Assembly (NCBI GenBank): GCA_963753085.1
Contig: CAVWBF010000027.1
Coordinates: 10,382-74,381 of the forward strand
Direction of reading: 5' to 3'
Origin: an uncultured Spirochaetota bacterium
GTDB taxonomy: Bacteria > Spirochaetota > Spirochaetia > SZUA-6 > Fen-1364
Length of the DNA stretch: 64,000 bases
The position numbers and the translations under genes are program-made. Of the stretch, positions 25,123-43,864 are shown in pieces (the stretch's first letter is position 1; each line of letters begins with the position of its first letter). The notes below the pieces were generated by a model. The model did no database searches, had not been told where the DNA came from, and saw nothing but the letters and a program-made list of their open reading frames with translations.

Positions 25123-26010
25123 GTGGGCAAAAAGGAACCGTCCGGGCTTCTTTCATCGTTCGAAAGCTTTTCTCCAGAAATGAATCCGCGCCTGGTGCCT
25201 GCGAGCCCGTCGTACTGGCTGGCATGCCAGGGGAGCAGCATCCTGATCGAGGCGGGCAAGGGCGGGGCCGCCGGCTCAGAGGCAGCTTGCATTCCCCTTG
25301 CCGACGACCTGGCCTCACTCGGGCTGTCCGGCGGCGCCTCCCATCTCCTGGGAACGGCTGCCGGCCACCCGTGTCGGGCAGTGGGCATCCCTATCGGGAC
25401 TCCTGCTCCCGCCGGCCTGCGCTTCGAAGGCCTGCGGTCCCTTTTCGACGGGATGTCCTACAGCTTCTTCGCGCTGGCGGCGCGCGCTCTGGAGATCGTG
25501 GAGTGGGATCGCTCGCACCGCTTCTGCGGGACATGCGGCACGGCGACCATCCTCAAGGACGGCGAGCGCGCTCGGGAATGCCCTTCCTGCGGCAGCCTGA
25601 GCTACCCCCGCATCTCGCCGGCCGTGATCGTTGCGGTGGTGCGGGGCGACAGGATCCTCCTTGCGCGCGCGGCCAGATTTCCTCCCGGCCTCCACAGCGT
25701 GCTGGCCGGCTACGTCGAGCCGGGAGAGACTCTCGAGGAATGCGTTCATCGCGAAGTGCGCGAGGAGACGGGGATCGAGGTGACCAACCTGCGCTACTTT
25801 GCGAGCCAGCCGTGGCCCTTTCCTCACTCCCTGATGGTCGCGTTCACCGCTGAGCATGCCGGGGGGGAGATCGTCGTGGACGGCACGGAGCTCAAGGACG
25901 CCGCGTGGTTCTCGGCGGACGCGCTCCCCGAAATCCCCGGTCCGATGACGGTGGCCCGTCGGCTGATTGACTGGTTTACGAGCGGGCGGCCGGCATGGGG
26001 AACCCCATGA
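25123..26010 (+). CDS. nudC: NAD+ diphosphatase (Nudix hydrolase NudC-type with zinc ribbon)
   Basis: CGTCG...CPSCG zinc ribbon followed by Nudix box GYVEPGETLEECVHREVREETGI. ATG 25180 is an alternative start. Confidence 0.85.
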   Translation: MGKKEPSGLLSSFESFSPEMNPRLVPASPSYWLACQGSSILIEAGKGGAAGSEAACIPLADDLASLGLSGGASHLLGTAAGHPCRAVGIPIGTPAPAGLRFEGLRSLFDGMSYSFFALAARALEIVEWDRSHRFCGTCGTATILKDGERARECPSCGSLSYPRISPAVIVAVVRGDRILLARAARFPPGLHSVLAGYVEPGETLEECVHREVREETGIEVTNLRYFASQPWPFPHSLMVAFTAEHAGGEIVVDGTELKDAAWFSADALPEIPGPMTVARRLIDWFTSGRPAWGTP

Positions 26011-27431
26011 CCAGGGAGGTGAGCCGCTGCGGCTGGGCGTCCGGCGAAGAGGCGCTCATCCTCTACCACGACCGCGAGTGGGGAGTGCCCGTGCACGACG
26101 AGCATCGGCATTTCGAGTTTCTCATCCTTGAAGGAGCGCAGGCCGGCCTTTCCTGGCTCACGGTGCTTCGAAAAAGGGACGCGTATCGCCGAGCCTACCG
26201 CGGGTTCGATCCGGCCCGGGTTGCGCGGTTCGGGAAGCGGGACATCGAAAGGCTGATGGGGGATCCCGGGATCGTGCGCAACCGGGCCAAGATCGAGTCT
26301 TCGATCAACAATGCCAAGAGGTTCCTCGAGATCCAGAAAGAGTTTGGCAGCTTCGACGCGTACATCTGGAAATGGACGCACGGGAGGCCGCAGGTGAACC
26401 GCTGGCGCGCAATCCGCGAGGTCCCGCCCACGAGCGAGCTCTCCGACGAGGTGTCGAAGGACTTGAAGGCGCGCGGGTTCAGCTTTGTCGGCTCGACCAT
26501 CATCTACTCCCACCTGCAGGCGGTCGGTGTGATCAACGATCACCTCGCGAGCTGCTTCCGTTGGGCCGGGCTTGCCGCGCGCAACCGGGGCGCCGCCGGC
26601 CGCGCGCGGGCCGGCCCCGCGCGGGCCTGCCACACGTGGGCCGCCGAGAGGGCTGAGCGCAGCGAAGGATCCTGTTGCAGCGTCGTTGCAGAATGCACCC
26701 GTTTGCTCTACATTCGGGGTGTGAACGAGCTCGTCGCTGTCATCGAAGATGAAGACGATATTCGCGACCTGGTTGCGGCGGCGCTGAAGAAGGAGCGGTT
26801 TCGCGTCCGGGAGCATCCCGACGGACATGGGTTCCTTGCGTCCCTGGCCGCCGAAAGGCCGGGCCTCATTATCCTGGACCTCATGCTTCCGGACATGGAC
26901 GGGTTCGAGATCTGCCGCAGGATCCGCGCCGACCGGGACCTCTCCTCCATTCCTGTCATCATCCTGACAGCCCGCTCCGAAGAAGCGGACCGGATCCTCG
27001 GCCTCGAGCTCGGCGCGGATGACTACGTCGTAAAGCCCTTCTCCCCCAAGGAGCTTGCGGCGCGCGTGAAGGCCGTCCTCCGCCGCGCCGCCCCCGAGAC
27101 CGCGCGGGCGCGCATCGATGCGGGAGAAGGCCTCATCATCGACACGGATACCCTGGAGGCGTTCGCCGACGGGCATCGCCTGGAGCTGACGCAGGCGGAG
27201 TTTCGTATCCTCCAGCTCCTGGCCAGCCGCGTCGGATGGGTTTTCTCCCGGGAAAAGATCCTGGACTATCTCTGGGGCAACGAGAAGAACGTCACCGACA
27301 GGTCGGTGGACGTGCACGTGAAGCACCTGCGGGACAAGCTCGGAGCACAGGGAGCCCGGATCCTCAACGTCCGGGGAGTCGGCTACAAGCTCATCTCATC
27401 CACTCGCGCGGTCCCCACGGAGGGGCGGTGA
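25995..27431 (+). CDS. Continuous ORF: DNA-3-methyladenine glycosylase I (Tag) domain, about 50-aa Ala/Arg/Gly linker, then an OmpR/PhoB-type response regulator
   Basis: The Tag signature (YHDREWGVPVHD ... VINDH) is followed with no stop codon by a receiver domain and a winged-helix domain in the same frame. Confidence 0.6.
   Translation: MGNPMTREVSRCGWASGEEALILYHDREWGVPVHDEHRHFEFLILEGAQAGLSWLTVLRKRDAYRRAYRGFDPARVARFGKRDIERLMGDPGIVRNRAKIESSINNAKRFLEIQKEFGSFDAYIWKWTHGRPQVNRWRAIREVPPTSELSDEVSKDLKARGFSFVGSTIIYSHLQAVGVINDHLASCFRWAGLAARNRGAAGRARAGPARACHTWAAERAERSEGSCCSVVAECTRLLYIRGVNELVAVIEDEDDIRDLVAAALKKERFRVREHPDGHGFLASLAAERPGLIILDLMLPDMDGFEICRRIRADRDLSSIPVIILTARSEEADRILGLELGADDYVVKPFSPKELAARVKAVLRRAAPETARARIDAGEGLIIDTDTLEAFADGHRLELTQAEFRILQLLASRVGWVFSREKILDYLWGNEKNVTDRSVDVHVKHLRDKLGAQGARILNVRGVGYKLISSTRAVPTEGR
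26721..27431 (+). CDS. phoB: OmpR/PhoB-family response regulator (possible independent GTG start inside the long ORF)
   Basis: VNELVAVIEDEDD...LDLMLPDMDG...VVKPF receiver, and a C-terminal winged helix (LTQAEFRILQLL...VDVHVKHLRDKL...VRGVGYKL). GTGA overlap with the kinase gene. Confidence 0.75.
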   Translation: MNELVAVIEDEDDIRDLVAAALKKERFRVREHPDGHGFLASLAAERPGLIILDLMLPDMDGFEICRRIRADRDLSSIPVIILTARSEEADRILGLELGADDYVVKPFSPKELAARVKAVLRRAAPETARARIDAGEGLIIDTDTLEAFADGHRLELTQAEFRILQLLASRVGWVFSREKILDYLWGNEKNVTDRSVDVHVKHLRDKLGAQGARILNVRGVGYKLISSTRAVPTEGR

Positions 27432-30357: not shown

Positions 30358-31248
30358 GTGGGAAGGATGACGACCGCGCGGGCTTCTGATTCGGCGTTCC
30401 GAACGACGCTCTTTGTCGGGGGGATCGTGGTGAGCACCCTGCTTGTCGCGATTTTCCTCACTCTTGTGCTCTCCTCCCGCCCTGCTCTCGTCGCAAACGG
30501 GTTTCAGTTTCTGACAGGTTCCGAATGGGATCCTGTCACAAACAGCTTCCACGCCGTGCCCTTCATCGCGGGCACCCTGCTCACCTCTTTTATTGCGCTG
30601 GTGCTGGCGACGGTGCTGGCGCTGGCACTTGCCATCCTGCTGGGAGAGTATTTTCGCACCGGTGTTTTTGCCTCTCTCATGAGGACCGCGGTCGAGCTCC
30701 TGGCCGGGATCCCCTCCATCGTATATGGCTTCATCGGACTCTTCTTTCTCGTTCCGGTTATCAGGGTCCTCCAGCAGCTCATTGGGGTGCCTCCCTTCGG
30801 CGTGGGCATCCTTACCGCTGCGATCCTCCTGGCGTTCATGGTACTCCCGTATTCGGCCTCGCTCAGCCGTGAAGTGATCAGCCTCGTCCCTGCCGACCTG
30901 AAAGAAGCGGCTTTGTCCCTGGGGGCGACTCCCTCCGAGACGATCTGGAAGGTGTCGCTTCCCTACGCCCGCTCGGGAATCGTCGGCGGAGTCTTTCTGT
31001 CGCTGGGCCGGGCGCTCGGGGAAACGATGGCTGTCACCATGGTGATCGGAAACTCAAATGCGCTCACCGCCAACGTCCTGTCTCCCGGCAATACGATGGC
31101 GAGCGTCATTGCGAACGAGTTTACCGAGGCCACCGGCAACGTCTACCTCGCAAGCCTCATCGAGATCGGGCTCCTCCTCTTCGTGATCAGCACGGCGATC
31201 AATATCCTCGGGAAGCTCGTCATCAACCGCATGGTAGAGGCCCGCTGA
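30358..31248 (+). CDS. pstC: Phosphate ABC transporter permease PstC
   Basis: 6-TM permease in the canonical pstSCAB order. PstC-like sequence throughout. Confidence 0.9.
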   Translation: MGRMTTARASDSAFRTTLFVGGIVVSTLLVAIFLTLVLSSRPALVANGFQFLTGSEWDPVTNSFHAVPFIAGTLLTSFIALVLATVLALALAILLGEYFRTGVFASLMRTAVELLAGIPSIVYGFIGLFFLVPVIRVLQQLIGVPPFGVGILTAAILLAFMVLPYSASLSREVISLVPADLKEAALSLGATPSETIWKVSLPYARSGIVGGVFLSLGRALGETMAVTMVIGNSNALTANVLSPGNTMASVIANEFTEATGNVYLASLIEIGLLLFVISTAINILGKLVINRMVEAR

Positions 31249-31249
31249 C

Positions 31250-32176
31250 GTGGCTGAAAACATCGCTCGAATGACACGCGGCGGCGGTGTGACTTCCTCC
31301 CAGGAAAGACTCGCATCCGGCTCGCGCGGAGAGGACGCGGGGGTCCGCGGCCGGCTTCGCGCGGACACAGCCTTTCGGGCCGGGGTCCTCGCATTGTCTC
31401 TCCTCGCCGTTCTTCCCCTTGTGCTCATTCTCATTTTCATCATCGTTCGGGGTGCCTCCTCGATCAACTGGCAGTTCCTGACGGAGCTTCCGAAGCCCAT
31501 GGGGGAGACGGGAGGCGGGATTGCGAATGGGATTGTCGGAACACTCATCCTGATCGTCATAGCTTCCGTGATTTCGATTCCGTTGGGGATCTTTGCCGGC
31601 ATTTTCCTTTCAGAAAGCGGGAAAAGCGAGCTGGGGAAAGTGACGCGCTTGTCGCTGGAAACGCTCATGGGCATCCCCTCGATCGTCATTGGAATTGTCG
31701 CCTATGTCTGGGTGGTTCGGCCCATGGGTCATTTCTCTGCCCTCTCTGGCGGAGTGGCGCTTGCCATGATCATGCTCCCCGTCATCACGCTCTCCACCGC
31801 GGAGACGCTCATGCTGATTCCCGTGAGTCTCCGTGAGGCCGCCCTTGCCATCGGCGTCTCGTACCCGCGGACGGTCCTCAAGGTGATCCTCCCCGCCGGC
31901 GCGAGCGGAATCATCACTGGAGTTCTTCTGGGCGTCGCCCGCGCCGCCGGAGAGACGGCCCCCCTTCTCTTCACTTCGTTCGGAAGCCCGTACATGGTTC
32001 TCGGCATCTTCAAACCCATGGCCTCGTTGCCCCAGACGATTTTCTATTACGCGATAAGCCCGTACCCCGAATGGCAGTCCCTCGCCTGGGGCGCTTCCTT
32101 TGTTCTCCTTGTTGTTGTGCTCGCGCTGAATCTCGTGACACGGCTGGTAACATCGAGATGGAAGATCCAGTTCTGA
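31250..32176 (+). CDS. pstA: Phosphate ABC transporter permease PstA
   Basis: GTG start 2 nt after the pstC stop. PstA-like permease with an EAA-type loop (AALAIGVSYPRTVLKVILP). Confidence 0.9.
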   Translation: MAENIARMTRGGGVTSSQERLASGSRGEDAGVRGRLRADTAFRAGVLALSLLAVLPLVLILIFIIVRGASSINWQFLTELPKPMGETGGGIANGIVGTLILIVIASVISIPLGIFAGIFLSESGKSELGKVTRLSLETLMGIPSIVIGIVAYVWVVRPMGHFSALSGGVALAMIMLPVITLSTAETLMLIPVSLREAALAIGVSYPRTVLKVILPAGASGIITGVLLGVARAAGETAPLLFTSFGSPYMVLGIFKPMASLPQTIFYYAISPYPEWQSLAWGASFVLLVVVLALNLVTRLVTSRWKIQF

Positions 32177-32937
32177 CCGCGGAAAAGATAATCCTTGAGA
32201 CGCGGGGCCTCACGGCCGGGTTCGACGGGACCGATGTCGTGAAGGGCATTTCGCTTGCCGTGCCCGAGCATCGCGTCACGGCGATCATGGGTCCGTCCGG
32301 CTGCGGCAAGACCACCTTCATGCGATGCATCAACCGTATGCACGAGCTGGCTCCCAACGCTGCCGTGCGCGGGAGCGTGCTCCTGGACGGGGACGACGTC
32401 TACCGCCTCAACCCCATCCTCCTGCGCCGCCGCATCGGGATGGTGTTCCAGCGGCCCAACCCGTTCCCGACAATGAGCATTTACGACAACGTCATCGCGG
32501 GCTACACTCTCAACGGCGCCCGCATGGACAGAACGGACCGTGACCGCATTGTGGAGGAGACGCTCCGCATCGTCACGCTGTGGGACGAAGTGAAGGATTC
32601 CCTCTATCGGCGTGGGACTTTCCTCTCCGGCGGCCAACAACAGAGACTCTGCATTGCCCGCGCCTTGGCCATGAAGCCCGAGGTGCTTCTCCTGGACGAA
32701 CCGACCTCCGCCCTGGACCCGAAGGCCACGGCTGCCATCGAGGAGCTGATCGTCTCTCTCAAGGGAACGGTCACCATCGTCCAGGTCACGCACAACATTC
32801 CCCAGGCGGCTCGTATTTCCGACTACACGGCGTTCATTCACATGGGAGAGCTCGTGGAGTTCGGGCCGACAAACAAGTTGTTCACGGTTCCGAAGGACAA
32901 GCGGACGGAGGAATACCTCTCCGGGAAGTTCGGATAG
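32158..32937 (+). CDS. pstB: Phosphate ABC transporter ATP-binding protein PstB
   Basis: Walker A GPSGCGKTT, signature LSGGQQQRL, Walker B LLLDEPTSALD. ATG 32158 overlaps the pstA end. Confidence 0.95.
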   Translation: MEDPVLTAEKIILETRGLTAGFDGTDVVKGISLAVPEHRVTAIMGPSGCGKTTFMRCINRMHELAPNAAVRGSVLLDGDDVYRLNPILLRRRIGMVFQRPNPFPTMSIYDNVIAGYTLNGARMDRTDRDRIVEETLRIVTLWDEVKDSLYRRGTFLSGGQQQRLCIARALAMKPEVLLLDEPTSALDPKATAAIEELIVSLKGTVTIVQVTHNIPQAARISDYTAFIHMGELVEFGPTNKLFTVPKDKRTEEYLSGKFG

Positions 32938-32945
32938 GAGTCACC

Positions 32946-33605
32946 ATGCCGATAGCGCAGATCGACGATCTCAAGGCGCGCGTCGTGGCGTACGCCCGCC
33001 TTGTCGAAGACATGATCGAGCAGTGCCGCTCCTCCCTGCAGAAGCGCACGACGGAGGATCTGGACGAGGTCGTGGAGAAGCAGGAGACGCGGGCCAACGA
33101 GTTCGAGATGGAGCTGGAGGAGGAATGCACCTCCCTCATCGCCCAGCACCAGCCCATGGCAAAAGAGCTGCGCACCATCCTCATGGTCCGCAGCATGACC
33201 AACGACCTGGAGCGCATGGCGGACCACGCGGTGAACATCGCGGAGGCAGCGCTCGAGTGCATCGGGCTTTCCACGGCGCAGCCCGACGAGGATCTCCTGC
33301 GGCTCTTCGGGGACACCATCGGGATGGTGGATAGCGCGGTGCGGAGCTTCATCGAGGCCAACGCGGCGCTGGGCAGGGAGGTGTGCGAGGCTGATGCCAC
33401 GGTGGACCAGCTTGCCTCCGAGATCCTGGAGCGCGTCAGCGTTTCCATGACCCGGGATCCCTTTACGATCGAGCAGAGCCTCTGCGTCCTGAAGATTGCC
33501 GGCAACTTGGAGCGGATTGCCGATCTTTCCACCAACATCGGGGAAGACGTGATCTACATGACCGAAGGCAGAGTGATCAAGCATAACCGGGTCGAGGAAA
33601 GGTAA
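32946..33605 (+). CDS. phoU: Phosphate signalling complex protein PhoU
   Basis: Two PhoU repeats (DLERMADHAVNIAE; NLERIADLSTNIGE). ATG 32946. Confidence 0.9.
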   Translation: MPIAQIDDLKARVVAYARLVEDMIEQCRSSLQKRTTEDLDEVVEKQETRANEFEMELEEECTSLIAQHQPMAKELRTILMVRSMTNDLERMADHAVNIAEAALECIGLSTAQPDEDLLRLFGDTIGMVDSAVRSFIEANAALGREVCEADATVDQLASEILERVSVSMTRDPFTIEQSLCVLKIAGNLERIADLSTNIGEDVIYMTEGRVIKHNRVEER

Positions 33606-33610
33606 ACACC

Positions 33611-35137
33611 GTGTCCCACCGGATCGCTTCCATCGACGTGGGCACGAATGCGATCCGCTTTTTTGCAGTCGAGATGGAGGGAGACTCGGTTTCGCGTGTC
33701 CTCAGCGAGGCGCGGTTTCCCGTACGCTTCGGCCACGGAGTCTTCTCCGCCGGGCGCATCAGCGCGGATGCTTCCGCCCAGGCCCTCGATGGCCTGGAAC
33801 GCGCGGCCGTCCAGATGAAGGAGCTGGGGATCCAGAAGTACCGGGCCGTGGCCACGAGCGCGGTCCGTGAGAGCCCCAACAGGCGGGAGCTCGTGCGCGC
33901 GGTGAAGCGGCGCACGGGGATCTCCCTCGAGGTGATCTCAGGGTCCGAGGAGATACGCCTTGTCCAGGTGGCCGTCACCCGCCGTCTCCTCCTGGGCACG
34001 GACCAGTGGATCCTCGTTGAGCTGGGCGGGGGGAGCGTGGAAGTGGCCCTGGTCACCTCTGCCCGCATCCTCTGGAGCGAGACGCACGCCATGGGCGCGG
34101 TGCGGCTCCTGGAGCTGTTTGCCCCTGGCGGAAAAGAGACCCCGGATTTCCTCGAGCTCCTGAGCGAGTACTCGGCAACCATCCGCCTGTCTCCAAGGGT
34201 CCGCGAGGCGAAGGCCTGCGGGTTCATCGGAACGGGTGGAAACATCGAGGTCCTGGCCAGGATAGCCAACGGCGCGGCGGAAGAGGGAGACGTCAGAAAG
34301 CTCCCGGTCAAGGGCCTGCGCGCGGCCATGGAAAAGCTTTCCCGCATGACCATGCAGGAGCGCATGAGCGCATACGATCTGCGCCCGGACCGGGCGGACG
34401 TGATTGTCCCTGCGGCCGTCGTTTACTCACAGCTCGCCGAGCTTCTCGGGGTCTCCGAGATTGTCGTCCCCGGCGGCGGGATCCGGGAGGGCATCATCTT
34501 CGACCTCGCCGACAAGCTGGCCGTTCGGCGCCCGGCGAGCGATGAAAGCACAATCGAGGATGCCGTAGCCCTGGGCAGGAAATACTCCTTTGACGAAGCG
34601 CACTCCGTGCATGTTGCCCGGCTTGCCGGCCAGCTCTTCGATCAGCTTTCCGCTGTTCATGGCCTCGGGAGTCGCGACAAGCGTCTCCTCATGGTCGCGG
34701 CAGTCCTCCACGATATCGGGGATTTCGTCAGCCTGAAGGGCCACCACAAGCATTCCCTGTACCTGATCTCGCGCGCCGAGATCTCAGGCTTTTCGCAGAG
34801 CGAGATGTTTCTCATTGCCAACATCGCGCGCTATCACAGGAAGAGCGCCCCGAGCGTGCGCCATGGCGAGTTCGCCCTCCTGTCCAGCGCGGACCGCGAG
34901 CGCGTGCGCCGGCTTGCGGCTATCCTGCGGATCGCCGACGCCCTGGACAAGGAGCACCGGGAGAAGATCCAGAAGATCGAGGTCAGGCGCAAGGAAGATC
35001 TCATCGAGATCGCCGCGGGGCGCAACGGCGACCTGCTCCTGGAGCGCTGGGCCCTCGAGAAGAAAGCCGACATGTTCAGGAGAGTCTTCGGAGCCCGGGT
35101 GGTCCTTGTGTCCCGGGAAGGCGGCCCGAGTGCCTGA
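33611..35137 (+). CDS. ppx: Exopolyphosphatase (Ppx/GppA) with C-terminal HD domain
   Basis: ASIDVGTNAIRFF actin-like ATPase N-terminus. HD region LHDIGDFVSLKGHHKHS. Confidence 0.9.
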   Translation: MSHRIASIDVGTNAIRFFAVEMEGDSVSRVLSEARFPVRFGHGVFSAGRISADASAQALDGLERAAVQMKELGIQKYRAVATSAVRESPNRRELVRAVKRRTGISLEVISGSEEIRLVQVAVTRRLLLGTDQWILVELGGGSVEVALVTSARILWSETHAMGAVRLLELFAPGGKETPDFLELLSEYSATIRLSPRVREAKACGFIGTGGNIEVLARIANGAAEEGDVRKLPVKGLRAAMEKLSRMTMQERMSAYDLRPDRADVIVPAAVVYSQLAELLGVSEIVVPGGGIREGIIFDLADKLAVRRPASDESTIEDAVALGRKYSFDEAHSVHVARLAGQLFDQLSAVHGLGSRDKRLLMVAAVLHDIGDFVSLKGHHKHSLYLISRAEISGFSQSEMFLIANIARYHRKSAPSVRHGEFALLSSADRERVRRLAAILRIADALDKEHREKIQKIEVRRKEDLIEIAAGRNGDLLLERWALEKKADMFRRVFGARVVLVSREGGPSA

Positions 35138-37238
35138 GGCAGTACGCTCGGCAGAGGACCTGGCGGATCCGTCCCTTTTCATTGACCGGGAGCTCAGTCT
35201 CCTGGACTTTTTTCGGCGCGTGCTGGAGGAGGCAGAAGACCCGTCAAACCCCCTCCTGGAACGCGTGAGGTTCCTTTCCATAGTCAGCTCCAACCTGGCG
35301 GAGTTCTTCATGGTCCGGGTCTCGGGTCTGAAACAGCAGATCGAGGCCGGCGTGAGCGAGCACTCCGCCTCGGGGCTTTCTCCGTCGGCCCAGCTTCAAG
35401 CGGTGCGCAAGGCGTCCCAGGATCTCATGCTGCAGGCACGCGCCTGCCTGCGGGAACTCCTCCCGCTCCTGGACAGCGTCGGGATTCACATTCTCGGCTA
35501 CGAGGGCCTTTCCGATGCCCAGCGAGCCTCCGTCGACTATTACTTCCGGGAGGTAGTCTTTCCCGTCCTTACGCCGCTGGCTGTGGATCCGGGCCGCCCC
35601 TTTCCTCATATCTCCAACATGAGCCTGAACTTCGCCCTCGTCGTCAGTGATCCCGGAGGACAGGAGCGATTCGCCAGGGTCAAGCTGCCGGGCACGCTCC
35701 CGCGGCTCGTGGAGGTTCGCGCCCCGGACGGTGAGAAAGGCCAGTCCGATCAGAACCAGTCCGTCACCTTTGTCTGGCTGGACCAGGTTGTCACGGCCAA
35801 CCTGGGCACCCTCTTCCCCGGCCTCAAGGTGGGTCAATCGTATCCATTCAGGGTAACGCGGGATGCCGAGGTTTCCATCCAGGAGCTGGAGGCGGAAGAC
35901 CTCCTGGAGACCATCGAGCGGGGCGTACGGCAGCGGCGCTTCGGAAAGGTCGTGCGGGTCACCGTGGACCCCCGGATGCCGGATGCAATTCGCGACATAC
36001 TGGTTGAGAACCTGGAGGTGGACCCGAGGGACATCTACACCCTGGAGCCTCCCCTTGGGATGAGCGACATCGCGCAGCTGCACGACCTTGACCGGCCCGA
36101 CCTCAAATACCCGCCCTTCCTTCCAGCACTTCCTCCCGCGCTGCGGGACCTGGAAGGAAGCATCTTCGCAGCCATCCGCAGGGACGATATCCTCCTGCAC
36201 CATCCCTACGATTCCTTCACCCCCGTGGTGGATTTTCTCAACACCGCCGCCAGCGACCCTTCGGTTCTTGCCATCAAGCAGACCCTCTACCGGGTGGGCC
36301 GCAACTCTCCGGTCGTGGAAGCGCTCCTGGAGGCTGCGCGCAACGGGAAGCAGGTTGCCGTGCTCGTGGAGCTGAAGGCCCGCTTCGACGAGGAGAGTAA
36401 CATCGAATGGGCCCGCGCCCTGGAGCGCGAGGGCGTCCACGTCGTGTATGGCCTCCTGGGCCTGAAAACGCACTCCAAGATCGCCCTTGTCGTGCGCCAG
36501 GAAGGGGACCGCATCCGCCGCTACGTCCACCTCTCCACGGGAAACTACAACGCGGTCACCGCGCAGCAATACACAGACCTCGGGCTTTTCACGTGCGACG
36601 ACGCCATCGGGGCCGACACCTCGGATGTCTTCAACTACCTTACCGGCTACAGCGACAAAAGCGACTACCGGCGGTTCCTCGTGGCCCCCATCAACCTGCG
36701 CCGGGGACTGGAGGCCTTGATCCGCCGTGAGATGGCCCACACAGCCGGCGGAGGGGAAGGGCACGTGATCTTCAAAATCAACGCCCTGGTGGACAAGCCG
36801 ATGATCCAGCTCCTCTACGAAGCATCCCAGGCGGGCGTCAAAATCGACCTGGTGGTGCGCAGCATGTGCTGCCTGCGACCGGGCATCCCGGGGGTGAGTG
36901 AGACCATCTCCGTGCGGAGCATCGTCGGCAGGTTCCTCGAGCACAGCAGGATCTTCTGGTTTCGAAACGGCGGACGTGAGGAAGTCTACCTGGGAAGCGC
37001 CGACCTGATGATGCGAAACCTCGACAGGCGCGTGGAGATTCTTTTCCCGGTGGCAAGCCAGCGACTCGTCCGCTACCTTCACGACGAGGTGCTTGCCACA
37101 TGCCTTGCGGACAACGGCAAGGCGCGAGTGATGAAGAAGGATGGCAGCTACGAGCGGCCCCGGCGCGACGACGGGAGGGAGATCATCGACTCGCAGGCGC
37201 AGCTCATCAAGCGGCGGGGGAGCCAGGGGGGCGGGTGA
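35130..37238 (+). CDS. ppk1: Polyphosphate kinase 1
   Basis: FIDRELSLLDFFRRVLEEAEDPSNPLLERVRFLSIVSSNLAEFFMVR N-terminus, and the HSKIALV PLD-like catalytic His region. GTG 35130 overlaps the ppx end by 8 nt. Confidence 0.9.
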   Translation: MPEAVRSAEDLADPSLFIDRELSLLDFFRRVLEEAEDPSNPLLERVRFLSIVSSNLAEFFMVRVSGLKQQIEAGVSEHSASGLSPSAQLQAVRKASQDLMLQARACLRELLPLLDSVGIHILGYEGLSDAQRASVDYYFREVVFPVLTPLAVDPGRPFPHISNMSLNFALVVSDPGGQERFARVKLPGTLPRLVEVRAPDGEKGQSDQNQSVTFVWLDQVVTANLGTLFPGLKVGQSYPFRVTRDAEVSIQELEAEDLLETIERGVRQRRFGKVVRVTVDPRMPDAIRDILVENLEVDPRDIYTLEPPLGMSDIAQLHDLDRPDLKYPPFLPALPPALRDLEGSIFAAIRRDDILLHHPYDSFTPVVDFLNTAASDPSVLAIKQTLYRVGRNSPVVEALLEAARNGKQVAVLVELKARFDEESNIEWARALEREGVHVVYGLLGLKTHSKIALVVRQEGDRIRRYVHLSTGNYNAVTAQQYTDLGLFTCDDAIGADTSDVFNYLTGYSDKSDYRRFLVAPINLRRGLEALIRREMAHTAGGGEGHVIFKINALVDKPMIQLLYEASQAGVKIDLVVRSMCCLRPGIPGVSETISVRSIVGRFLEHSRIFWFRNGGREEVYLGSADLMMRNLDRRVEILFPVASQRLVRYLHDEVLATCLADNGKARVMKKDGSYERPRRDDGREIIDSQAQLIKRRGSQGGG

Positions 37239-37717
37239 TGGACCTTTTCTTCTTACGCCACGGAGAAGCGCAAAGCAGGGAGGAGTGGAAAGGCGATGAC
37301 GGGGAACGCCCGCTATCCGAGGAGGGCGTTGCCCGGATGCGCCGGGAGGGAAAGACGCTCGCCGGGCTCTCTCTCGGTGTCTCCCTGGTCCTGACCAGCC
37401 CGCTGGTACGGGCATTCGCGACAGCAGAGATTGCCGCGACCGCGCTGGGCCTCCGTGATTCGCTCTTTACAGACGCACGCCTTTCCCCCGGCTTCAACGT
37501 GATGTTGCTGCGGGAGATCCTTGCCGAACACGCCGAGGTGGGTGCACTGCTCATCGTGGGGCACGAACCTGATTTCAGCGAGACCATCGAGGCGTGCATT
37601 GGCGGAGGACGGGTGGAGTGCAAAAAGGGCGGCCTTGCGAGGCTTGTCATCACCGATCCCCTGCGTCCCCGCGGCTCGCTCCTGTGGCTTCTTCCCCCCC
37701 GTGTCCTTGCCCCATGA
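37238..37717 (+). CDS. sixA: Phosphohistidine phosphatase SixA-like (histidine phosphatase superfamily)
   Basis: LRHGEA motif and a downstream GHEP motif. The ATG shares one base with the ppk1 TGA. Confidence 0.8.
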   Translation: MDLFFLRHGEAQSREEWKGDDGERPLSEEGVARMRREGKTLAGLSLGVSLVLTSPLVRAFATAEIAATALGLRDSLFTDARLSPGFNVMLLREILAEHAEVGALLIVGHEPDFSETIEACIGGGRVECKKGGLARLVITDPLRPRGSLLWLLPPRVLAP

Positions 37718-39897
37718 GCACGGAGACGGAGGCAAAGCTCCTCGTCGCCGACCTCGTTTCCTTCAACCGGGCGAAAGCCCTGCGCGCCCTCGGAGAGTTC
37801 GCCCTCTCCGCGGGACAGGAGGTGGATGTCCATGATACGTATCAGGACACCCCCAGCCGAACCCTCCTGGCAGCTGGCTGGGCGCTGCGCACGAGAGAGC
37901 GCGCCGGTGAGATCCTTCTGACCTTGAAATCTCTTGCCCCCTTGTCGGGCGTCATCCACGAGCGGGAGGAGCTGGAGGTCACGTTGGACCGACCGGGTGA
38001 TCCCGGGGAGTGGCCCGACTCGGAGCTTCGGCGCGTAGTCCTTTCACTGGCAGGAAACCAGCCGTTAGAGCCCCTGTTCGAGGTTCAGCAGACGCGCCTC
38101 GTGCGGCGAGTTGCCTCAGGGGACCGGGTTGCCGCGGAGATGAGCCTGGATCAGGTCCGGGTGCTGGCTGGCGGGCGGGAGCGGGAGTACTGCGAGCTGG
38201 AAATCGAGCTCCTGGGCGACGGCACTCGTGACGATCTTTCCGCAATTTTGTCGGCGCTGGCCGAAGAGATGCCGCTTGTTCCTTCAGCGCGCTCAAAGTT
38301 CGAAGAGGGGCTGCTCCTGCTCGACGGGGCTGCGGCGGTGACCCGGCAACCCGGACGGCCAAAATCCATGCGGTCCCTTATCCCCGAGGCCGCGGGAAGG
38401 CCGCTGGAGCTGGAGGCTCCCGCGGGCGTCGAAGAGGAGACTGTCCTCACCGAGCTTCAACGCCTGGGATACCGCTCAAGGGTGCGCTCCCGAAGGGGGG
38501 AGACCCGCACATACTTCGACACCCAGGGTGGAAGCCTCCTCCGCCAGGGCTGCGAGCTGTACGTCACGGGAGCGGACTTGCGGTGGCACTTCCTGCGCGA
38601 CGGTCGCCAGGAGCATTCGCAGAAGGGTGGGCAGGGTGCGCCGCCGAAGATGGGGCCTGTGGGGCATTCCGTGGAAGGAGTCACGCGCAACCGTCCAGGC
38701 GTTCCCTATCTCGAGGCAGTCATGCGTGAGACTGCGCTCTCCCTGGCAAGCATGACGGCACCGGTGCTGGGCGTTACTCTCTCCAATTGGCGCCTTCGCT
38801 CGCTGCTGCACGAGCTGCCTGAGCAGACCGTTCTCACCCTGGCCGTGGACCGCGGCAGGGCATCGCCGTTCGAAAGAGACTACCTGGTCCAGCTTCTGAA
38901 GAGCGGGCTCGATCTCCGCCAGCTGGACGGAACGGTGCTCGGCTTCGGCCTTCGGCGGCTCGGGGCACCGCTTCCTGGCGCCCCCCTGCCCGGAGAATAC
39001 CTGCCGGCGCGCGGAGACGACGTGCCCACCGTATGCCGCAGGATCCTCGGGGGGGAAGCGTGGCGGATGAAAGCGAACGCCCCGGGAGCGATCAAGGATC
39101 TTGACTCCGAGTTTGTCCACGACCTCCGCGTTGCCACCCGCCGGGCGCGCTTTGCCTGCCGGCTCTTTCTTGCTGTCCTGGGTGAGCAAGGCCGCGACAG
39201 GGTACGAGCGGAGCTCTCCTGGATTGCCGGGCTCCTGGGCGGGGTCCGGGATCTGGACGTGCTGCGGGAACGGCTTGGCTCCCAGCTTGCCCTTACCGAT
39301 GCCGATCCACAGTTTATGAAAAACATGACAGACCTTCTGGATGCAAGGCGGGCACAGGCGAGGGCAGCCCTGGTCCCGGCGTTGGGCTCCCCGCGGTTTC
39401 ACGCTCTCCTTGAGCTGATGAGTTTGGCAGCGCCCGAGCCTTCCGGGCCGGCGGCGGCAGCAGCCGGTCAGCCGGCTTCAGAGCTTGGCCGGCGCAAGCT
39501 GACCCGGGCGCTGGCAAAGATGCTGCCCTGGACGAAACGCAACCCCGAAGAGCTTTCCGCGGCAGAGTTGCACAGGCTTCGCATTCTCTTCAAACGGCTC
39601 CGCTACACGGCAGAGTTTTTTCGCCCCGTCCTGGACGAGGATGTCACTCCGCTCGTGAAGGAGTGCGTGGCGTACCAGGACTGCCTTGGCCTGCACCAGG
39701 ACGCACGGGCGGCTGTGGAGATCATCACCGGGTTTGCCGAAGAGCCGGCCGTGCGCGGAGAGCCGGAAGCGCTCCTTGCCCTTGGCGCCCTTGTCCAGGT
39801 TCAGCGGGACCGGATGAAAACGCAGAGGGATCGGTTCCAGGTTCTCTGGAAATCCGCCCCGGCCCTTTTCAACACGTGGGAGCCGCAGGCGCCATGA
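37714..39897 (+). CDS. CYTH-domain plus CHAD-domain protein (polyphosphate-granule-associated type)
   Basis: N-terminal TETEAKLLV (CYTH ExExK) and a C-terminal CHAD-like helical region (VHDLRVATRRARFACRLF ... LHRLRILFKRLRYTAEFF). ATGA overlaps on both sides. Confidence 0.8.
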   Translation: MSTETEAKLLVADLVSFNRAKALRALGEFALSAGQEVDVHDTYQDTPSRTLLAAGWALRTRERAGEILLTLKSLAPLSGVIHEREELEVTLDRPGDPGEWPDSELRRVVLSLAGNQPLEPLFEVQQTRLVRRVASGDRVAAEMSLDQVRVLAGGREREYCELEIELLGDGTRDDLSAILSALAEEMPLVPSARSKFEEGLLLLDGAAAVTRQPGRPKSMRSLIPEAAGRPLELEAPAGVEEETVLTELQRLGYRSRVRSRRGETRTYFDTQGGSLLRQGCELYVTGADLRWHFLRDGRQEHSQKGGQGAPPKMGPVGHSVEGVTRNRPGVPYLEAVMRETALSLASMTAPVLGVTLSNWRLRSLLHELPEQTVLTLAVDRGRASPFERDYLVQLLKSGLDLRQLDGTVLGFGLRRLGAPLPGAPLPGEYLPARGDDVPTVCRRILGGEAWRMKANAPGAIKDLDSEFVHDLRVATRRARFACRLFLAVLGEQGRDRVRAELSWIAGLLGGVRDLDVLRERLGSQLALTDADPQFMKNMTDLLDARRAQARAALVPALGSPRFHALLELMSLAAPEPSGPAAAAAGQPASELGRRKLTRALAKMLPWTKRNPEELSAAELHRLRILFKRLRYTAEFFRPVLDEDVTPLVKECVAYQDCLGLHQDARAAVEIITGFAEEPAVRGEPEALLALGALVQVQRDRMKTQRDRFQVLWKSAPALFNTWEPQAP

Positions 39898-40646
39898 CAA
39901 CCGTTGCCGTGTACCACCTCAAAGGCGGCGTAGGAAAGACGACAACGGCCGTCAACCTGGCCTGCTGCGCGGCACTGGACGGCGAGCGAACGCTCCTCTG
40001 GGACCTCGATCCGCAGGGAGCCGCCGGCTTCTACCTTGGTGCCGCAGTGGGGGCCAGGAAGACCGGACGCCGCCTCATCGAAGGGAAGATTAGGGTCACC
40101 GACGTTGCCCGGGAATCGGCGTTCCCCGGGCTGGATGTGCTTCCCTCCCGCTTCTCCTATAGAAAGCTCGATGTCCGCCTTGCCGTTCAAAGGAAAGCAA
40201 GGAGCGCCATCAGGCGCGTCCTCAAGCCTCTGGAGAAGACTTACCAGTGGGTCTTTCTGGACTGCCCGCCGGGAGTTTCCCTGCTTGCGGAAAACGTCTT
40301 TCGCGCGGCGGACGTGATCCTCGTTCCACTCATTCCCACCCCCCTTTCCATCAGATCCTTCGAGGAGATCTCCGTCTTTCTTGCCCGCAGTCGCCTGGGC
40401 CGGTCCCGGCTCGTGCCTTTCTTCTCCATGGTGGAAGGCAGGAAGAAAATCCATCGGGAGACGATGAAGGTCTTCTCCGCCCGGGAGAAGACCGTCCTGT
40501 TGTCCATCATCCCCGCAATGTCTGACATTGAAAGAATGGGCGTGACACGAAGACCCGTGGCGTACTTTCGGCCGCGTTCGTCTGCCGGCAAATCGTACCG
40601 CGCGCTCTGGAGCGAGCTGAAAGGAAAGCTCGCCGGTCGGACATGA
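39894..40646 (+). CDS. ParA/MinD-family P-loop ATPase
   Basis: Deviant Walker A (KGGVGKTT) and DLDPQG; 250 aa. ATGA overlaps with both neighbouring genes. Confidence 0.85.
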   Translation: MTTVAVYHLKGGVGKTTTAVNLACCAALDGERTLLWDLDPQGAAGFYLGAAVGARKTGRRLIEGKIRVTDVARESAFPGLDVLPSRFSYRKLDVRLAVQRKARSAIRRVLKPLEKTYQWVFLDCPPGVSLLAENVFRAADVILVPLIPTPLSIRSFEEISVFLARSRLGRSRLVPFFSMVEGRKKIHRETMKVFSAREKTVLLSIIPAMSDIERMGVTRRPVAYFRPRSSAGKSYRALWSELKGKLAGRT

Positions 40647-41752
40647 CCCCGCAGCTTGTCGGCGCGGCCGCGAGCATCGAGGCAACGCTCCAGAAGCTCT
40701 TCGACTCCTCTCCGACTCTCCCCCTGACAACCTCGGAGCGGCTTGTCGTCATCAGCGATCTCCATCTGGGAGATGGCAGCTCGCGAGATGACTTCCTCCC
40801 CAACGGAGAGCTCCTGGAAGAGATCCTCCGCCGCTATTACCTGCCCAACGGCTATTCCCTTGTCCTCAACGGGGACATTGAGGAGCTGCAGCGCTTCCCC
40901 CTGGACGCCATCAGGTCCCGCTGGCACGGGCTGTACGAGCTCTTCCGCCAGTTCGTCGCGCGGGCCGCTGTCTACAGGATAGTCGGCAATCACGACGATG
41001 GCCTCTGGCACTCCGATGCGCGGATCGGGGACGAGCCTCTCCTGGCCTCCCTGCGGCTTTCCTTCGGATCGGAAACCATCTTCATCTTCCACGGCCATCA
41101 GGCCACGATCTTCTTCGAGCGGTTCAACGACGTCTCGGGCTTTTTCCTTCGCCATTTCGCCAACAGGCTCAACATCCGCAATCTTCCCGTGCACTACGAA
41201 AGCACGAGGAGATACAGGACTGAGCACCGGGTGTACGCATTCTCCAGCGCCCGAAAGATCGTCTCCGTGATCGGGCACACGCATCGTCCGCTCTTCGAGT
41301 CTCTTTCGAAGATCGATACGCTGCGCTTCCGCATTGAGCAGATGTGCCGCGATTACCCGTCGGTGTCTCCCCGTGCCCGGCGGACCATCGAGAAGGTGGT
41401 GGACATCTACAAGGGCGAGCTGAGCCACCTCTGGGAGAAATCCCGGCGGGACGGCATGCGAAGCAGCCTGTACAACGAGCAGCTCTCCGTTCCCTGCCTT
41501 TTCAACTCCGGCTGCGCCATCGGCAAACGAGGAGTGACTGCAATCGAAATAGCCCAGGGGGAGATCGCTCTCGTGCACTGGTTCGACAGGCGCAGAAGCG
41601 ACAAACACCTCACGAACGGCCACCGGGGCCTGGCCTCCTATCCCCACGACGGGGAGGCCACGAGGCGCCTGGGAGAGACAGAGTATTATCGGACGCTCCT
41701 GAAGAAGGACCGGCTGGATTACGTCTTCTCCCGGATCCGCCTCCTCGCCTAG
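40643..41752 (+). CDS. Calcineurin-like metallophosphoesterase
   Basis: VISDLHLGDG, LNGDIEE and GNHD motifs in the canonical order, then a later GHTH. Confidence 0.8.
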   Translation: MTPQLVGAAASIEATLQKLFDSSPTLPLTTSERLVVISDLHLGDGSSRDDFLPNGELLEEILRRYYLPNGYSLVLNGDIEELQRFPLDAIRSRWHGLYELFRQFVARAAVYRIVGNHDDGLWHSDARIGDEPLLASLRLSFGSETIFIFHGHQATIFFERFNDVSGFFLRHFANRLNIRNLPVHYESTRRYRTEHRVYAFSSARKIVSVIGHTHRPLFESLSKIDTLRFRIEQMCRDYPSVSPRARRTIEKVVDIYKGELSHLWEKSRRDGMRSSLYNEQLSVPCLFNSGCAIGKRGVTAIEIAQGEIALVHWFDRRRSDKHLTNGHRGLASYPHDGEATRRLGETEYYRTLLKKDRLDYVFSRIRLLA

Positions 41753-41759
41753 ATGGGAA

Positions 41760-41798
41760 TTAACCGCAAATTAAGGGAACGCAAAGAAAAACCTAACA
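41760..41798 (+). promoter_or_regulatory. Pho-box-like phased repeats upstream of the GHKL-like gene
   Basis: TTAACC (41760), TTAAGG (41771), CTAACA (41793), all on an 11-bp register. The unit at 41782 is degenerate. Confidence 0.45.
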
Positions 41799-41834
41799 CG
41801 GAAGCCTGATCCTGCCCCCGCGAGGAGGAAGCAG

Positions 41835-42530
41835 ATGCCGTCGACGAAGCGGGGTCTCTGGGAAAGCGTCTACTATGCCATCGTCCAGTCGAAGACGCTC
41901 ACCGTCTCCACGTGCGCCTATCTGCCCGGGGAGCGGATACACATCGACAAGATCCTCGGCGCATTCCTGGAGGCTGCTGGAATGATGGAGCTGCGGAACA
42001 ACCTCGCGTATTGCATCCACGAGCTCGCGGGGAACGCCAAGAAGGCGAATATGAAGCGCCTCTATTTCCAGGAAAAGACCCTCGACATCCTTGACCCCGT
42101 GGATTACGCGCGCGGCATGGAAGGGTTCAAGAGCGAAACGACGGAACAGATCGCCTACTATCTGAAGAAGTTGAAGGAGAACGGCCTGTACGTGAAGTTC
42201 CAGTTTCGCAAGCTGAAGCGGGGAGTGCGCATCAGCATCCGAAACAATTCCCAGCTCACTCCGTCCGAGCAGCGGCGAATCGGGGAAAAGCTGGCAATTG
42301 CCAGCCGGTACTCGTGCCTTGCGGAAGCCTATTCGACAACGGAGGACAGTGCCGAGGGGGCCGGGCTGGGAATCGTCATGATGCTCTTCATGCTGAAGAA
42401 CCTTGGATTTTCGCAGAGCTCGTTTTCCATCCGCGTGTCGGCAGGCGAAACCATCGCTACGTTGAGCCTCGAAGTTCCGGCCGCCGCCGCCTCGGAAATC
42501 GAGGAGCCGGCGCATACGGCGAGCGCGTGA
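41835..42530 (+). CDS. GHKL (histidine-kinase-like ATPase) fold protein, possible anti-sigma/partner-switching kinase with a degenerate G1 box
   Basis: N-box-like HELAGNAKKAN and G2-like EGAGLGIVMM. The usual DxGxG position reads IRNNSQL. Adjacent to PP2C and STAS genes. Confidence 0.5.
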   Translation: MPSTKRGLWESVYYAIVQSKTLTVSTCAYLPGERIHIDKILGAFLEAAGMMELRNNLAYCIHELAGNAKKANMKRLYFQEKTLDILDPVDYARGMEGFKSETTEQIAYYLKKLKENGLYVKFQFRKLKRGVRISIRNNSQLTPSEQRRIGEKLAIASRYSCLAEAYSTTEDSAEGAGLGIVMMLFMLKNLGFSQSSFSIRVSAGETIATLSLEVPAAAASEIEEPAHTASA

Positions 42531-42544
42531 GGTCCTGGCTCTCG

Positions 42545-43864
42545 TTATTGCCCTGCCCCATTTGAAGGCGCACCGTACTTCATGATCACGAAGGTTACAT
42601 CGTCGCGCTGGGGAGCCTCGCCGCGGAAGGACGAAAGGTCCGCAGCCAGCCTGCCGGACAGCTGCTGCGGCGCCAACCCACCATGCGTCTTCAGCAGCCC
42701 CCAGAGGCGCTGCTCCGTATAGTCGTGTCCGTTGCCATCCGTCTGATCGATCACCCCGTCCGTGAACAGGACCAGGAGGCTCCCGGGCTTCATGCGGTAC
42801 GTCCGCGTGACAGGATTGAGATCCGGCTGGACACCGAGGGGGGGATTGGCGGTTTCAGAGCCAAGCCGCATGAGCTTCGCGCCTTCCATCACCAGCATGT
42901 ACGAGTGGCCCATATCGCAGATGATCGCCTCCCCGGTATCCTCGTCGAACTCGATGATGATGCCGGTGACAAAGTACTCCAGGGAAAAGGTGTCGATGAT
43001 GTAGCGGTTGAGGGTTCGCGCGAAGCTCTTGACCGAGTTGGACTCCGTGTAGCCGTCGAAGAAACCCCCAAGCACCGCGGTAATCAGGGATGCCGCGATC
43101 CCCTTGCCTGAGACGTCGCAGATAGCGATGAGAAGCTTGCCGTCGTCGAGGCGCTTGAGAACGTAAAAGTCTCCCCCGACCTCCTTCGCCATGGCTGATG
43201 CGCCCAGAAGGAGCGTGCGCTTCCCCGAGAAAGAGAAAGTCTCCTTCACGATAGCGTTTTGCAGCCTGCGGGCCAGCGAGATGTCCCGAGCGGTGATGTT
43301 CGAAAGGTAGATGAGCAGATCCGTCGTGGAGAAGATGCCCGCAAAGCGGCCCGAGCCATCGACAAGCATGTAGTACAAGCTCGCTCCCTTGCTCAGCTCT
43401 TCGCTGAGGATGTCTGCGACGCTGAAGATGCTCATGTCGTCGCGGAAGATCCGAGGCGGGCTCATGACGGTGGGAGCGAGCTTCCGCTTGTACAGATCCC
43501 TTCCGTTCATTTTGCCGAGGTTGTCGAAAAGCTCCCGCCTCAACACAATCCCGACGGGCACCCCCTTCTGATCCACCACGCCGACGCCGAAGATGCCTGG
43601 ATTTTTCTCCATGCCCTCCGCCAGGTCGTAGACCGAGGCATCCTGGGAAATGAACATGCGGCTGGATGCGAGCTTGGCGATGACTTCTCCCGGCCTGCTG
43701 TTCGGCTCAACGATTCCAAGCACATTGGTTGAGGAGTCAGGCTCATCCGTGCCGAACCCCGACCGGCGCTCGGCCAGGGCCGGTAAGCCAAGGTCGACAA
43801 CGGTGAACTTGTCGAGGATCGTCTCAGAGACGGCTCTTCTTCCGCTTGGGTCTCCTGCATTCAT
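42545..43864 (-). CDS. PP2C-family (SpoIIE/RsbU-like) serine phosphatase with N-terminal CBS pair
   Basis: CBS-like segments (GVGVVDQKGVPVGIVLRRELF; YYMLVDGSGRFAGIFSTTDLL). PP2C motifs GDFYV, ICDVSGKG, FTDGV. ATG 43864 is preferred over GTG 43957, which sits inside the divergent Pho-box. Confidence 0.8.
   Translation of the reverse strand: MNAGDPSGRRAVSETILDKFTVVDLGLPALAERRSGFGTDEPDSSTNVLGIVEPNSRPGEVIAKLASSRMFISQDASVYDLAEGMEKNPGIFGVGVVDQKGVPVGIVLRRELFDNLGKMNGRDLYKRKLAPTVMSPPRIFRDDMSIFSVADILSEELSKGASLYYMLVDGSGRFAGIFSTTDLLIYLSNITARDISLARRLQNAIVKETFSFSGKRTLLLGASAMAKEVGGDFYVLKRLDDGKLLIAICDVSGKGIAASLITAVLGGFFDGYTESNSVKSFARTLNRYIIDTFSLEYFVTGIIIEFDEDTGEAIICDMGHSYMLVMEGAKLMRLGSETANPPLGVQPDLNPVTRTYRMKPGSLLVLFTDGVIDQTDGNGHDYTEQRLWGLLKTHGGLAPQQLSGRLAADLSSFRGEAPQRDDVTFVIMKYGAPSNGAGQ

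Follow-up and report, generated by a model that had tools for sequence, protein, structure and literature searches.

We analyzed a window of 64,000 nucleotides on contig CAVWBF010000027.1 from an uncultured bacterium of the phylum Spirochaetota. Our subject is the gene of a small ParA/MinD-type ATPase, which stands among genes of phosphate uptake and polyphosphate (polyP) metabolism and which a first-pass annotation of the sequence had proposed as a positioning factor for polyP granules. On the same strand ahead of it lie the genes of a PhoB-like regulator, phoR, pstS, pstC, pstA, pstB, phoU, ppx, ppk1, a SixA-like gene and a CYTH-CHAD gene (Table 1). The first-pass annotation had named the two flanking products, a CYTH-CHAD protein and a phosphoesterase, and Pfam CYTH, CHAD and Metallophos confirm them. 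However, it understated the context, because the pst-phoU-ppx-ppk1-sixA run on the same strand had been missed.

The last genes of this string overlap one another. The TGA stop of ppk1 (37236-37238) overlaps the next ATG in the junction TGATG, and the SixA-like gene shares ATGA at 37714-37717 with the CYTH-CHAD gene, whose real start is the ATG at 37714. The ATPase gene is joined in the same way at both its ends, as had been described: its start ATG shares ATGA at 39894-39897 with the stop of the CYTH-CHAD gene, and its stop shares ATGA at 40643-40646 with the start of the metallophosphoesterase gene. A scan of positions 36800-42700 found no promoter-like site; terminator-like sites numbered 6, with 4.9 expected. 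The ppk1 reading frame as listed is over-extended at its start, the Pfam N domain beginning at residue 122.

Table 1. Genes of the ATPase locus and of the preceding phosphate and polyP genes (window coordinates).
Feature	Coordinates	Strand	Evidence
ParA/Soj-fold ATPase gene	39894..40646	+	250 amino acids, start MTTVAVYHLKGGVGKTT; basic, CHAD-associated family
CYTH-TTM-CHAD partner, proposed granule adaptor	37714..39897	+	Pfam CYTH 2e-17, CHAD 4.5e-50
pstC, pstA, pstB, phoU (phosphate uptake, Pho control)	30358..33605	+	Pfam BPD_transp_1 twice, ABC_tran, PhoU
ppx/gppA exopolyphosphatase	33611..35137	+	Pfam Ppx-GppA 2e-44, Ppx-GppA_III 1e-30
ppk1 polyphosphate kinase	34815..37238	+	all four PP_kinase domains, E 6e-35 to 3e-77
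SixA-like histidine phosphatase	37238..37717	+	Pfam His_Phos_1 5e-10; N-terminus MDLFFLRHGE
Calcineurin-like metallophosphoesterase, last gene of the overlapping string	40643..41752	+	Pfam Metallophos 5e-9

The ATPase itself was described beforehand as a protein of 250 amino acids with a deviant Walker A motif, and translation, Pfam, motifs and fold all bear this out. The motif KGGVGKT occupies residues 10-16, and the Pfam matches are AAA_31 (3e-33) and CbiA (1e-12), while the NCBIfam equivalogs ParA_partition, RepA, MinD, BcsQ and SopA all score far under their cut-offs. The earlier statement that no parB or parS partner lies nearby also held. No ParB_N domain was found in the assembled host genome (77% complete), a search of the window with the parS consensus gave matches at chance level and none near the ATPase locus, and no iterated or centromere-like repeats were found at that locus. 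A Soj-type ParA was not found in the host assembly either, and the only other ParA/MinD member there is a single MinD/FlhG-like gene (C6:258963-259670). Relatives do have a Soj-type gene, and its lack here, like that of ParB, may be a gap because of the incomplete assembly.

The AlphaFold2 model of the window ATPase, built with 100 family sequences, has a mean predicted local distance difference test score (pLDDT) of 95.9. In Foldseek its nearest structures are Soj/ParA proteins (9A6N, 8RAY, 2BEJ) with template modelling scores (TM) of 0.87-0.89, followed by McdA (0.82-0.83) and, further off, by MinD (0.77-0.81); FleN, MinD and BcsQ together fall at 0.74-0.81. The same order is seen at the level of sequence, where the best solved relatives are ParA 8RAY (4e-22) and the Soj protein of T. 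thermophilus (3e-17), at 25-30% identity for Soj/ParA, and where the likeness to McdA is weak (6e-10). The window protein shares with Soj the deviant Walker A motif with its signature lysine and both Asp motifs. Across the 100 family sequences K10, G11, G14, K15, the Walker A' residues D37 and D39, and D123 of Walker B are invariant. R183, which aligns with the DNA-binding arginine of Soj, is kept in 53/81 members of the locus set described below and, in the 100-sequence alignment, in no fewer than 90% of members; the adjoining position 184 is Lys or Arg in 95%. In contrast, the PRNVRL motif of Soj is replaced by the family motif P-x-x-S-D/E-V/I-E-R-M-G. Like Soj, the family ends at the last core helix and has no MinD-type C-terminal extension.

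By charge, too, these proteins stand well apart from Soj. The family has a median isoelectric point (pI) of 9.5 and a net charge of about +10 to +11, against pI 4.8-8.8 and charges of -8 to +3 in the Soj-like outgroup paralogues; the window ATPase reaches pI 10.7 and +23. Arg or Lys is conserved at the family-specific positions 49, 51, 55, 73, 90, 100, 137, 154, 184, 214 and 219, in members adjacent to a CHAD gene and in orphan members alike. The family signature (Y7, R90, D93, E133, P148, R154, H187, E213, M215, R219, W239) is present in full in the window protein. The trees had as outgroup the Soj-like paralogues of the carrier genomes and of close relatives. In them the whole family forms one clade apart from Soj with 96-100% Shimodaira-Hasegawa-type support, members not adjacent to CHAD nest inside it, and no fewer than 11 changes of the adjacency label are required on the tree. 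The phylogenetic placement that the first-pass annotation had called for was thus obtained with respect to the Soj paralogues; McdA and MinD were compared outside the tree, by PDB matches. Judging from these comparisons, we assign the window ATPase to a distinct, widespread and undescribed ParA-like family of very basic proteins.

In several places the gene trees conflict with taxonomy. Nitrosomonas and a Rhizobiaceae sequence are found among the Rhodobacterales, Microthrixaceae among the Gammaproteobacteria, and a metagenome-assembled genome of Bdellovibrio stands beside Chromatiaceae. Such conflicts suggest that the module has spread horizontally, or else that some bins contain errors.

Four known kinds of protein were considered for the window ATPase and rejected. 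A chromosome or plasmid partition ParA does not agree with the failure to find ParB in the 77% complete assembly and parS at the locus, with the clade apart from Soj and with the NCBIfam ParA equivalogs, all under cut-off. For MinD, the minD models give 43-45 bits against cut-offs above 200, the C-terminal extension is missing, and no min genes occur in the neighbourhood examined. A metallochaperone of Mrp/CooC type would have a Cys motif, which the window ATPase does not have, and the best matches are ParA/Soj. McdA was rejected on account of the neighbours, which are polyP genes and not McdB or carboxysome genes, and of its low sequence match.

The partner protein consists of a canonical CYTH/TTM barrel with ExExK (here ETEAK), a second TTM-like barrel, which has no Pfam match and is seen in the AlphaFold2 model, and a helical CHAD domain. 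The model (pLDDT 91.5) places the barrels at about residues 1-190 and 230-400 and the helices at 438-723. Compared with PDB by sequence, the CHAD domain matches 6QV7, 6QVA and 3E0S at 4e-23, the first two being crystallised polyP-binding CHAD chains, and the first barrel matches the YgiF triphosphatase 5A60 at 1e-9. Pfam CHAD is present in 70/70 aligned partners, and H470, R480, R513, H621, R624, K628 and R631 are invariant across these 70. In other phyla the partner is shorter, about 500-560 amino acids, and includes one TTM-like barrel and CHAD; the extra canonical CYTH domain occurs in 7/70 partners only, all of the spirochaete type and the window's among them. Passages in PMC6537752 and in PMC9239181 (citing Tumlirsch and Jendrossek 2017) state that CHAD proteins bind polyP and reside on granules. 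By its domain and its conserved His, Arg and Lys residues, the partner is predicted to be such a CHAD polyP-binding protein (phosin).

How constant is the association of the CHAD and ATPase genes in other genomes? In 41 related genomes the matches to the window ATPase were bimodal, with orthologues at 45-80% identity and Soj-type proteins at about 30%. A CHAD gene lies immediately upstream in 17/17 orthologous loci. The run phoU (or pstB)-ppx-ppk1-CHAD-ATPase is kept in 11 of the 15 same-genus contigs that reach far enough, the order pstC-pstA-pstB-phoU is also kept in same-genus loci, and the two most distant orthologous loci, which belong to other families, keep CHAD and the ATPase alone. 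The metallophosphoesterase gene follows the ParA-like gene in 13/15 same-genus loci, with a short remnant in one more, and was not found in the two other-family loci nor in the non-spirochaete loci; it accompanies the CHAD-ATPase pair only in this spirochaete genus.

The scan of species representatives gave 80 loci with 40-79% identity to the window ATPase; because it seeds on peptides of the query, it is biased toward close look-alikes. These loci belong to Spirochaetota, Pseudomonadota, Actinomycetota (Microthrixaceae), Calditrichota, KSB1, Deferribacterota, Thermodesulfobacteriota, Verrucomicrobiota, Kiritimatiellota, Ignavibacteriota, Chloroflexota, Bdellovibrionota and Bacteroidota. A CHAD gene on the same strand stands immediately upstream in 70 of the 77 loci not truncated on that side, mostly with a 4-bp overlap, and these 70 represent 12/13 phyla; the two Bacteroidota loci are without CHAD. 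The contigs that hold these loci are chromosomal and long, reaching 5 Mb.

Evenly drawn genomes give a different picture of adjacency. Among 200 Spirochaetota genomes there were 13 carriers, defined by a family member at E <1e-40, and CHAD was adjacent in 3 of them; in the other 10 no CHAD, ppk1, ppx, CYTH or phoU was detectable within 6 kb on either side. The sample of 400 Pseudomonadota genomes gave 68 carriers with 70 loci, where CHAD was adjacent in 8 of the 69 informative loci and absent from that position in 61, one locus being truncated. The non-adjacent Pseudomonadota members still carry the signature residues of the family and are still basic. Of these, 37 form one orphan clade, in which the queried member (L153) and its closest relatives bear Magnetococcales names; where checked, clade members (L152-L189 and others) have truA divergent upstream and a PALP enzyme gene downstream. 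The family is therefore wider than the CHAD-linked module, and claims of near-universal pairing would be too strong. The refuting outcome named in the first-pass annotation, homologs with no link to CHAD or ppk genes elsewhere, did not come about: CHAD stands immediately upstream in the 17/17 orthologous loci and in loci of 12 phyla, and the CYTH and CHAD fusions described below exist. In the even samples, adjacency proved to be limited to certain lineages, and at least 10 of the 81 carrier genomes have no CHAD gene.

At the level of whole genomes, the co-occurrence that had been proposed as a check was found. In Spirochaetota a CHAD gene is present in 11/13 carriers vs 12/187 non-carriers (Fisher p 2e-10), and in Pseudomonadota in 59/68 vs 123/333 (p 2e-14), the last count taking in one unpublished genome, G599. 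After removal of the Magnetococcales clade and of the adjacent cases, 16/24 Pseudomonadota carriers have CHAD (p 0.008). All these p values overstate the association because related genomes are not independent. For the kinases, PPK1 is present in 10/13 spirochaete carriers vs 62/187 non-carriers, and PPK2 is present in the three PPK1-less spirochaete carriers and in G317. The eight CHAD-less carriers outside Magnetococcales all have PPK1, and every carrier checked (22 of 81) has PPK1 or PPK2. In Pseudomonadota the lack of kinase-less carriers is weak evidence, since polyP kinases are expected to be common there.

The CYTH domain appears as a recurrent third component. In 16 loci from Alpha-, Beta- and Gammaproteobacteria, Verrucomicrobiota, Kiritimatiellota and one spirochaete, the ATPase gene is followed by a small CYTH gene overlapping its stop. 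The Nitrosomonas copy is orthologous to NE1496/NeuTTM (PDB 3TYP/2FBL, 7e-81), which has been characterised as an inorganic triphosphatase (PMC3440374). With fusions grouped by BLAST and Pfam, 10 of the best 150 representative clusters proved to be ATPase-CYTH fusions, 1 a CHAD-ATPase fusion and 1 an ATPase-HAD phosphatase fusion. Since the CHAD and ATPase genes normally overlap out of frame, their one fusion could have arisen as a frameshift artefact. A hidden Markov model of the small CYTH genes misses the CYTH domain fused to ParA, which is of a different subtype, and a metagenome scan with the fusion P0192 returned two unrelated CYTH loci only, with no ParA or CHAD. The shuffling of CHAD, ATPase and CYTH domains among two or three genes argues for their joint action.

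Given the polyP operon, the translational coupling to CHAD and the conservation across the genus, a context that could hardly be stronger, we consider it very probable that the window ATPase is functionally tied to polyP granules. The best single model, which in our estimate has an even chance of being correct, is that the ATPase is the motor of a two-part system for positioning and segregating granules, with the CHAD protein as adaptor. According to this model the operon, probably co-transcribed and under Pho control, would make PPK1, PPX, the SixA-like phosphatase, the CYTH-TTM-CHAD protein, the ATPase and the metallophosphoesterase together. The CHAD domain would bind the granule surface, and the ATPase would bind ATP and form a sandwich dimer via the signature lysine K10. 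Its very basic surface would then hold it on a polyanionic matrix, most likely nucleoid DNA. The granule-bound CHAD protein may stimulate ATP hydrolysis and so create a local zone depleted of ATPase. By analogy with ParABS and McdAB, granules would then follow the ATPase gradient, moving or spreading apart, and both daughter cells would receive them. The interpretation given in the first-pass annotation is supported in its first part, the association with polyP and CHAD, through linkage, fusions and co-occurrence; its second part, positioning, is proposed by analogy.

Several points weigh against the positioning model. DNA binding is not assured, because the PRNVRL motif of Soj is replaced in the family. 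Other ParA ATPases are stimulated by a basic N-terminal peptide, and none is seen to be conserved in the partner consensus, although this is a weak test. The tight link with a CYTH triphosphatase also fits an enzymatic or turnover role. CHAD adjacency is low in both even samples, and a CHAD gene was undetected in eight non-Magnetococcales Pseudomonadota carriers, one member of the Magnetococcales clade and two spirochaete carriers, so the family cannot depend strictly on CHAD. Such a system would also not be universal, because the spacing of polyP granules in Synechococcus elongatus needs no ParA-family protein (PMC13081873).

Could the ATPase serve the enzymes of polyP rather than the place of the granule? 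It might act in a complex for polyP turnover, either as an ATP-dependent switch or as an assembly factor, whose dimer recruits or regulates the CYTH triphosphatase, PPX, the metallophosphoesterase and PPK at the granule surface, like BcsQ or FlhG/FleN, and so controls polyP synthesis or mobilisation. We regard this as rather unlikely, and it stays alive because the CYTH triphosphatase is so recurrent, whether as a separate overlapping gene, fused to the ATPase, or fused to the CHAD protein as in the window. Enzyme genes stand on both sides of the window ATPase, one cluster is fused to a HAD/S6PP phosphatase, PPK2 adjoins the ATPase gene in G154, and Foldseek also matches BcsQ and FleN (TM 0.74-0.79). 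Nevertheless, both sequence and fold are nearer to Soj/ParA and McdA than to these two, in most carriers the ATPase gene lies away from any polyP enzyme gene, and a strong positive charge throughout the family suits matrix binding better than enzyme regulation.

The same charge can be read in another way, namely that the ATP-dimer binds polyP itself and not DNA, either as a granule coat or with polyP as its matrix, and that CHAD proteins are co-residents and not adaptors. The family would then control granule fusion, size or surface properties and would organise granules even where CHAD proteins are missing. Direct binding is possible because of the extreme basic charge and the CHAD-less carriers, among which are genomes with PPK1; the basic positions conserved in CHAD-adjacent and orphan members and the loss of one DNA-binding motif of Soj are on its side too. 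However, a basic charge serves DNA binding equally well, the DNA-binding arginine of Soj is largely kept, and we know of no ParA-family protein with a matrix other than DNA or membrane; we find this version distinctly improbable. Least probable of all is a ParA for DNA partition or for some other cargo that merely happens to lie in polyP loci in some lineages: most members in the even samples are not beside CHAD or ppk genes, some carriers lack CHAD, and in some spirochaetes a Lys-rich coiled-coil reading frame replaces CHAD upstream, but no ParB was found in the 77% complete assembly, and neither parS nor centromere-like repeats were seen at the locus, the family forms a clade apart from Soj, its loci lie on long chromosomal contigs, CHAD stop/start overlaps recur in 12 phyla, fusions exist, and the CHAD co-occurrence is strong.

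The positioning model can be compared with known systems. Both McdA-McdB and the window pair have a small ParA-type ATPase without ParB or parS beside a cargo-binding partner and would serve a nucleoid-associated cytoplasmic cargo that needs spacing, and the folds are alike. They differ in that the window partner is a CHAD or TTM-CHAD protein and not McdB, the cargo would be a granule of inorganic polymer, and carboxysome genes are missing nearby. From Soj/ParA of ParABS, the closest match, the window family is distinguished by its own clade, the lack of parB/parS, its far more basic proteins and the replaced PRNVRL motif. AlgP of P. aeruginosa and PhaM/PhaF/PhaH likewise deal with how storage granules are spaced on the nucleoid (PMC9239181, PMC13052382), but as passive histone-like DNA-binding tethers with no known ATPase, whereas the window has an ATPase and a protein with a polyP-binding domain. 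In gene neighbourhood only, the locus resembles a conserved folD-ppk-parA-CHAD cluster of Acidithiobacillus, which also keeps ppk, parA and CHAD together. The 2024 paper that lists this cluster leaves it uninterpreted and calls its ParA a plasmid partition protein (PMC10892726); a connection with the organisation of granules is not suggested there, nor is a family defined.

We found no published paper that establishes a polyP-granule ParA system, in agreement with the first-pass annotation, which knew of none. A review of ParA/MinD proteins does not mention polyP, and a 2025 review lists AlgP as the sole factor for polyP granules and calls the spacing component and its ATP dependence unknown (PMC13052382). 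In a 2026 study of S. elongatus, polyP granules were periodic, nucleoid-bound and independent of McdAB, and the mechanism in Escherichia coli, Caulobacter and Synechococcus is described as undefined (PMC13081873). The placement and inheritance of polyP granules in bacteria are thus an acknowledged open question (PMC13052382, PMC13081873), and we consider the window ATPase a strong candidate for the machinery that places them. If this is true, a dedicated ParA-type ATPase working with a CHAD adaptor would give an inorganic storage granule its first ATP-driven system, the list of ParA cargoes would grow, and the question would be directly testable in cultured carriers, with Paracoccus, Ruegeria, Nitrosomonas, Desulforhopalus vacuolatus and Magnetococcus marinus as tractable examples. 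If instead the ATPase binds polyP itself, a ParA-type ATPase would have an inorganic polymer as its matrix or direct cargo, rather than DNA or membrane. Among the cultured carriers are polyP-rich organisms that matter for the removal and cycling of phosphorus, such as Microthrixaceae, relatives of Desulfobulbaceae, and Magnetococcales.

Some further observations concern individual lineages. In 5 of the 10 spirochaete carriers without CHAD adjacency, a small Lys-rich, probably coiled-coil open reading frame of 94-121 amino acids stands directly upstream on the same strand, in the place of CHAD. In four of them (L139:6533-6898(-), L140:6245-6553(+), L146:6976-7260(-), L147:6087-6404(+)) it lies 9-16 nucleotides upstream, and in L144 it has 117 amino acids and ends at the ParA start. 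This frame may encode another small partner in place of CHAD, comparable to McdB or ParG. In the PPK1-less spirochaete G154 a PPK2 gene or fragment lies convergent, right after the ParA-like gene (G154:C81:12179-13427, locus L145). Magnetotactic cocci are known for large phosphorus-rich inclusions, and Magnetococcales genomes (G301, G253, G345 and G393, for example) carry CHAD-only genes of about 310-330 amino acids elsewhere, with up to 5 copies per genome. In Microthrixaceae a conserved reading frame follows the ParA-like gene (L053:6717-7778, and the same position in L054, L056, L057 and L065); it has 238-353 amino acids as listed and no Pfam match.

A SixA-like His_Phos_1 protein recurs in the module, before the CHAD gene in the window and after the ParA-like gene in a Desulfurivibrionaceae locus (L073:6735-7226). 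The ATPase-HAD fusion P0135 (561 amino acids) matches Pfam S6PP, sucrose-6-phosphate phosphatase, at 1e-65. The family representative P0146 (342 amino acids) has an Ala/Lys/Pro-rich C-terminal tail resembling histone H1 or AlgP, a type of protein known to space polyP and polyhydroxybutyrate granules in pseudomonads. Finally, a single open frame at 25995-27431 of the window includes a methyladenine glycosylase domain and a PhoB-type response regulator; two genes that share a frame are more probable here than a fusion.

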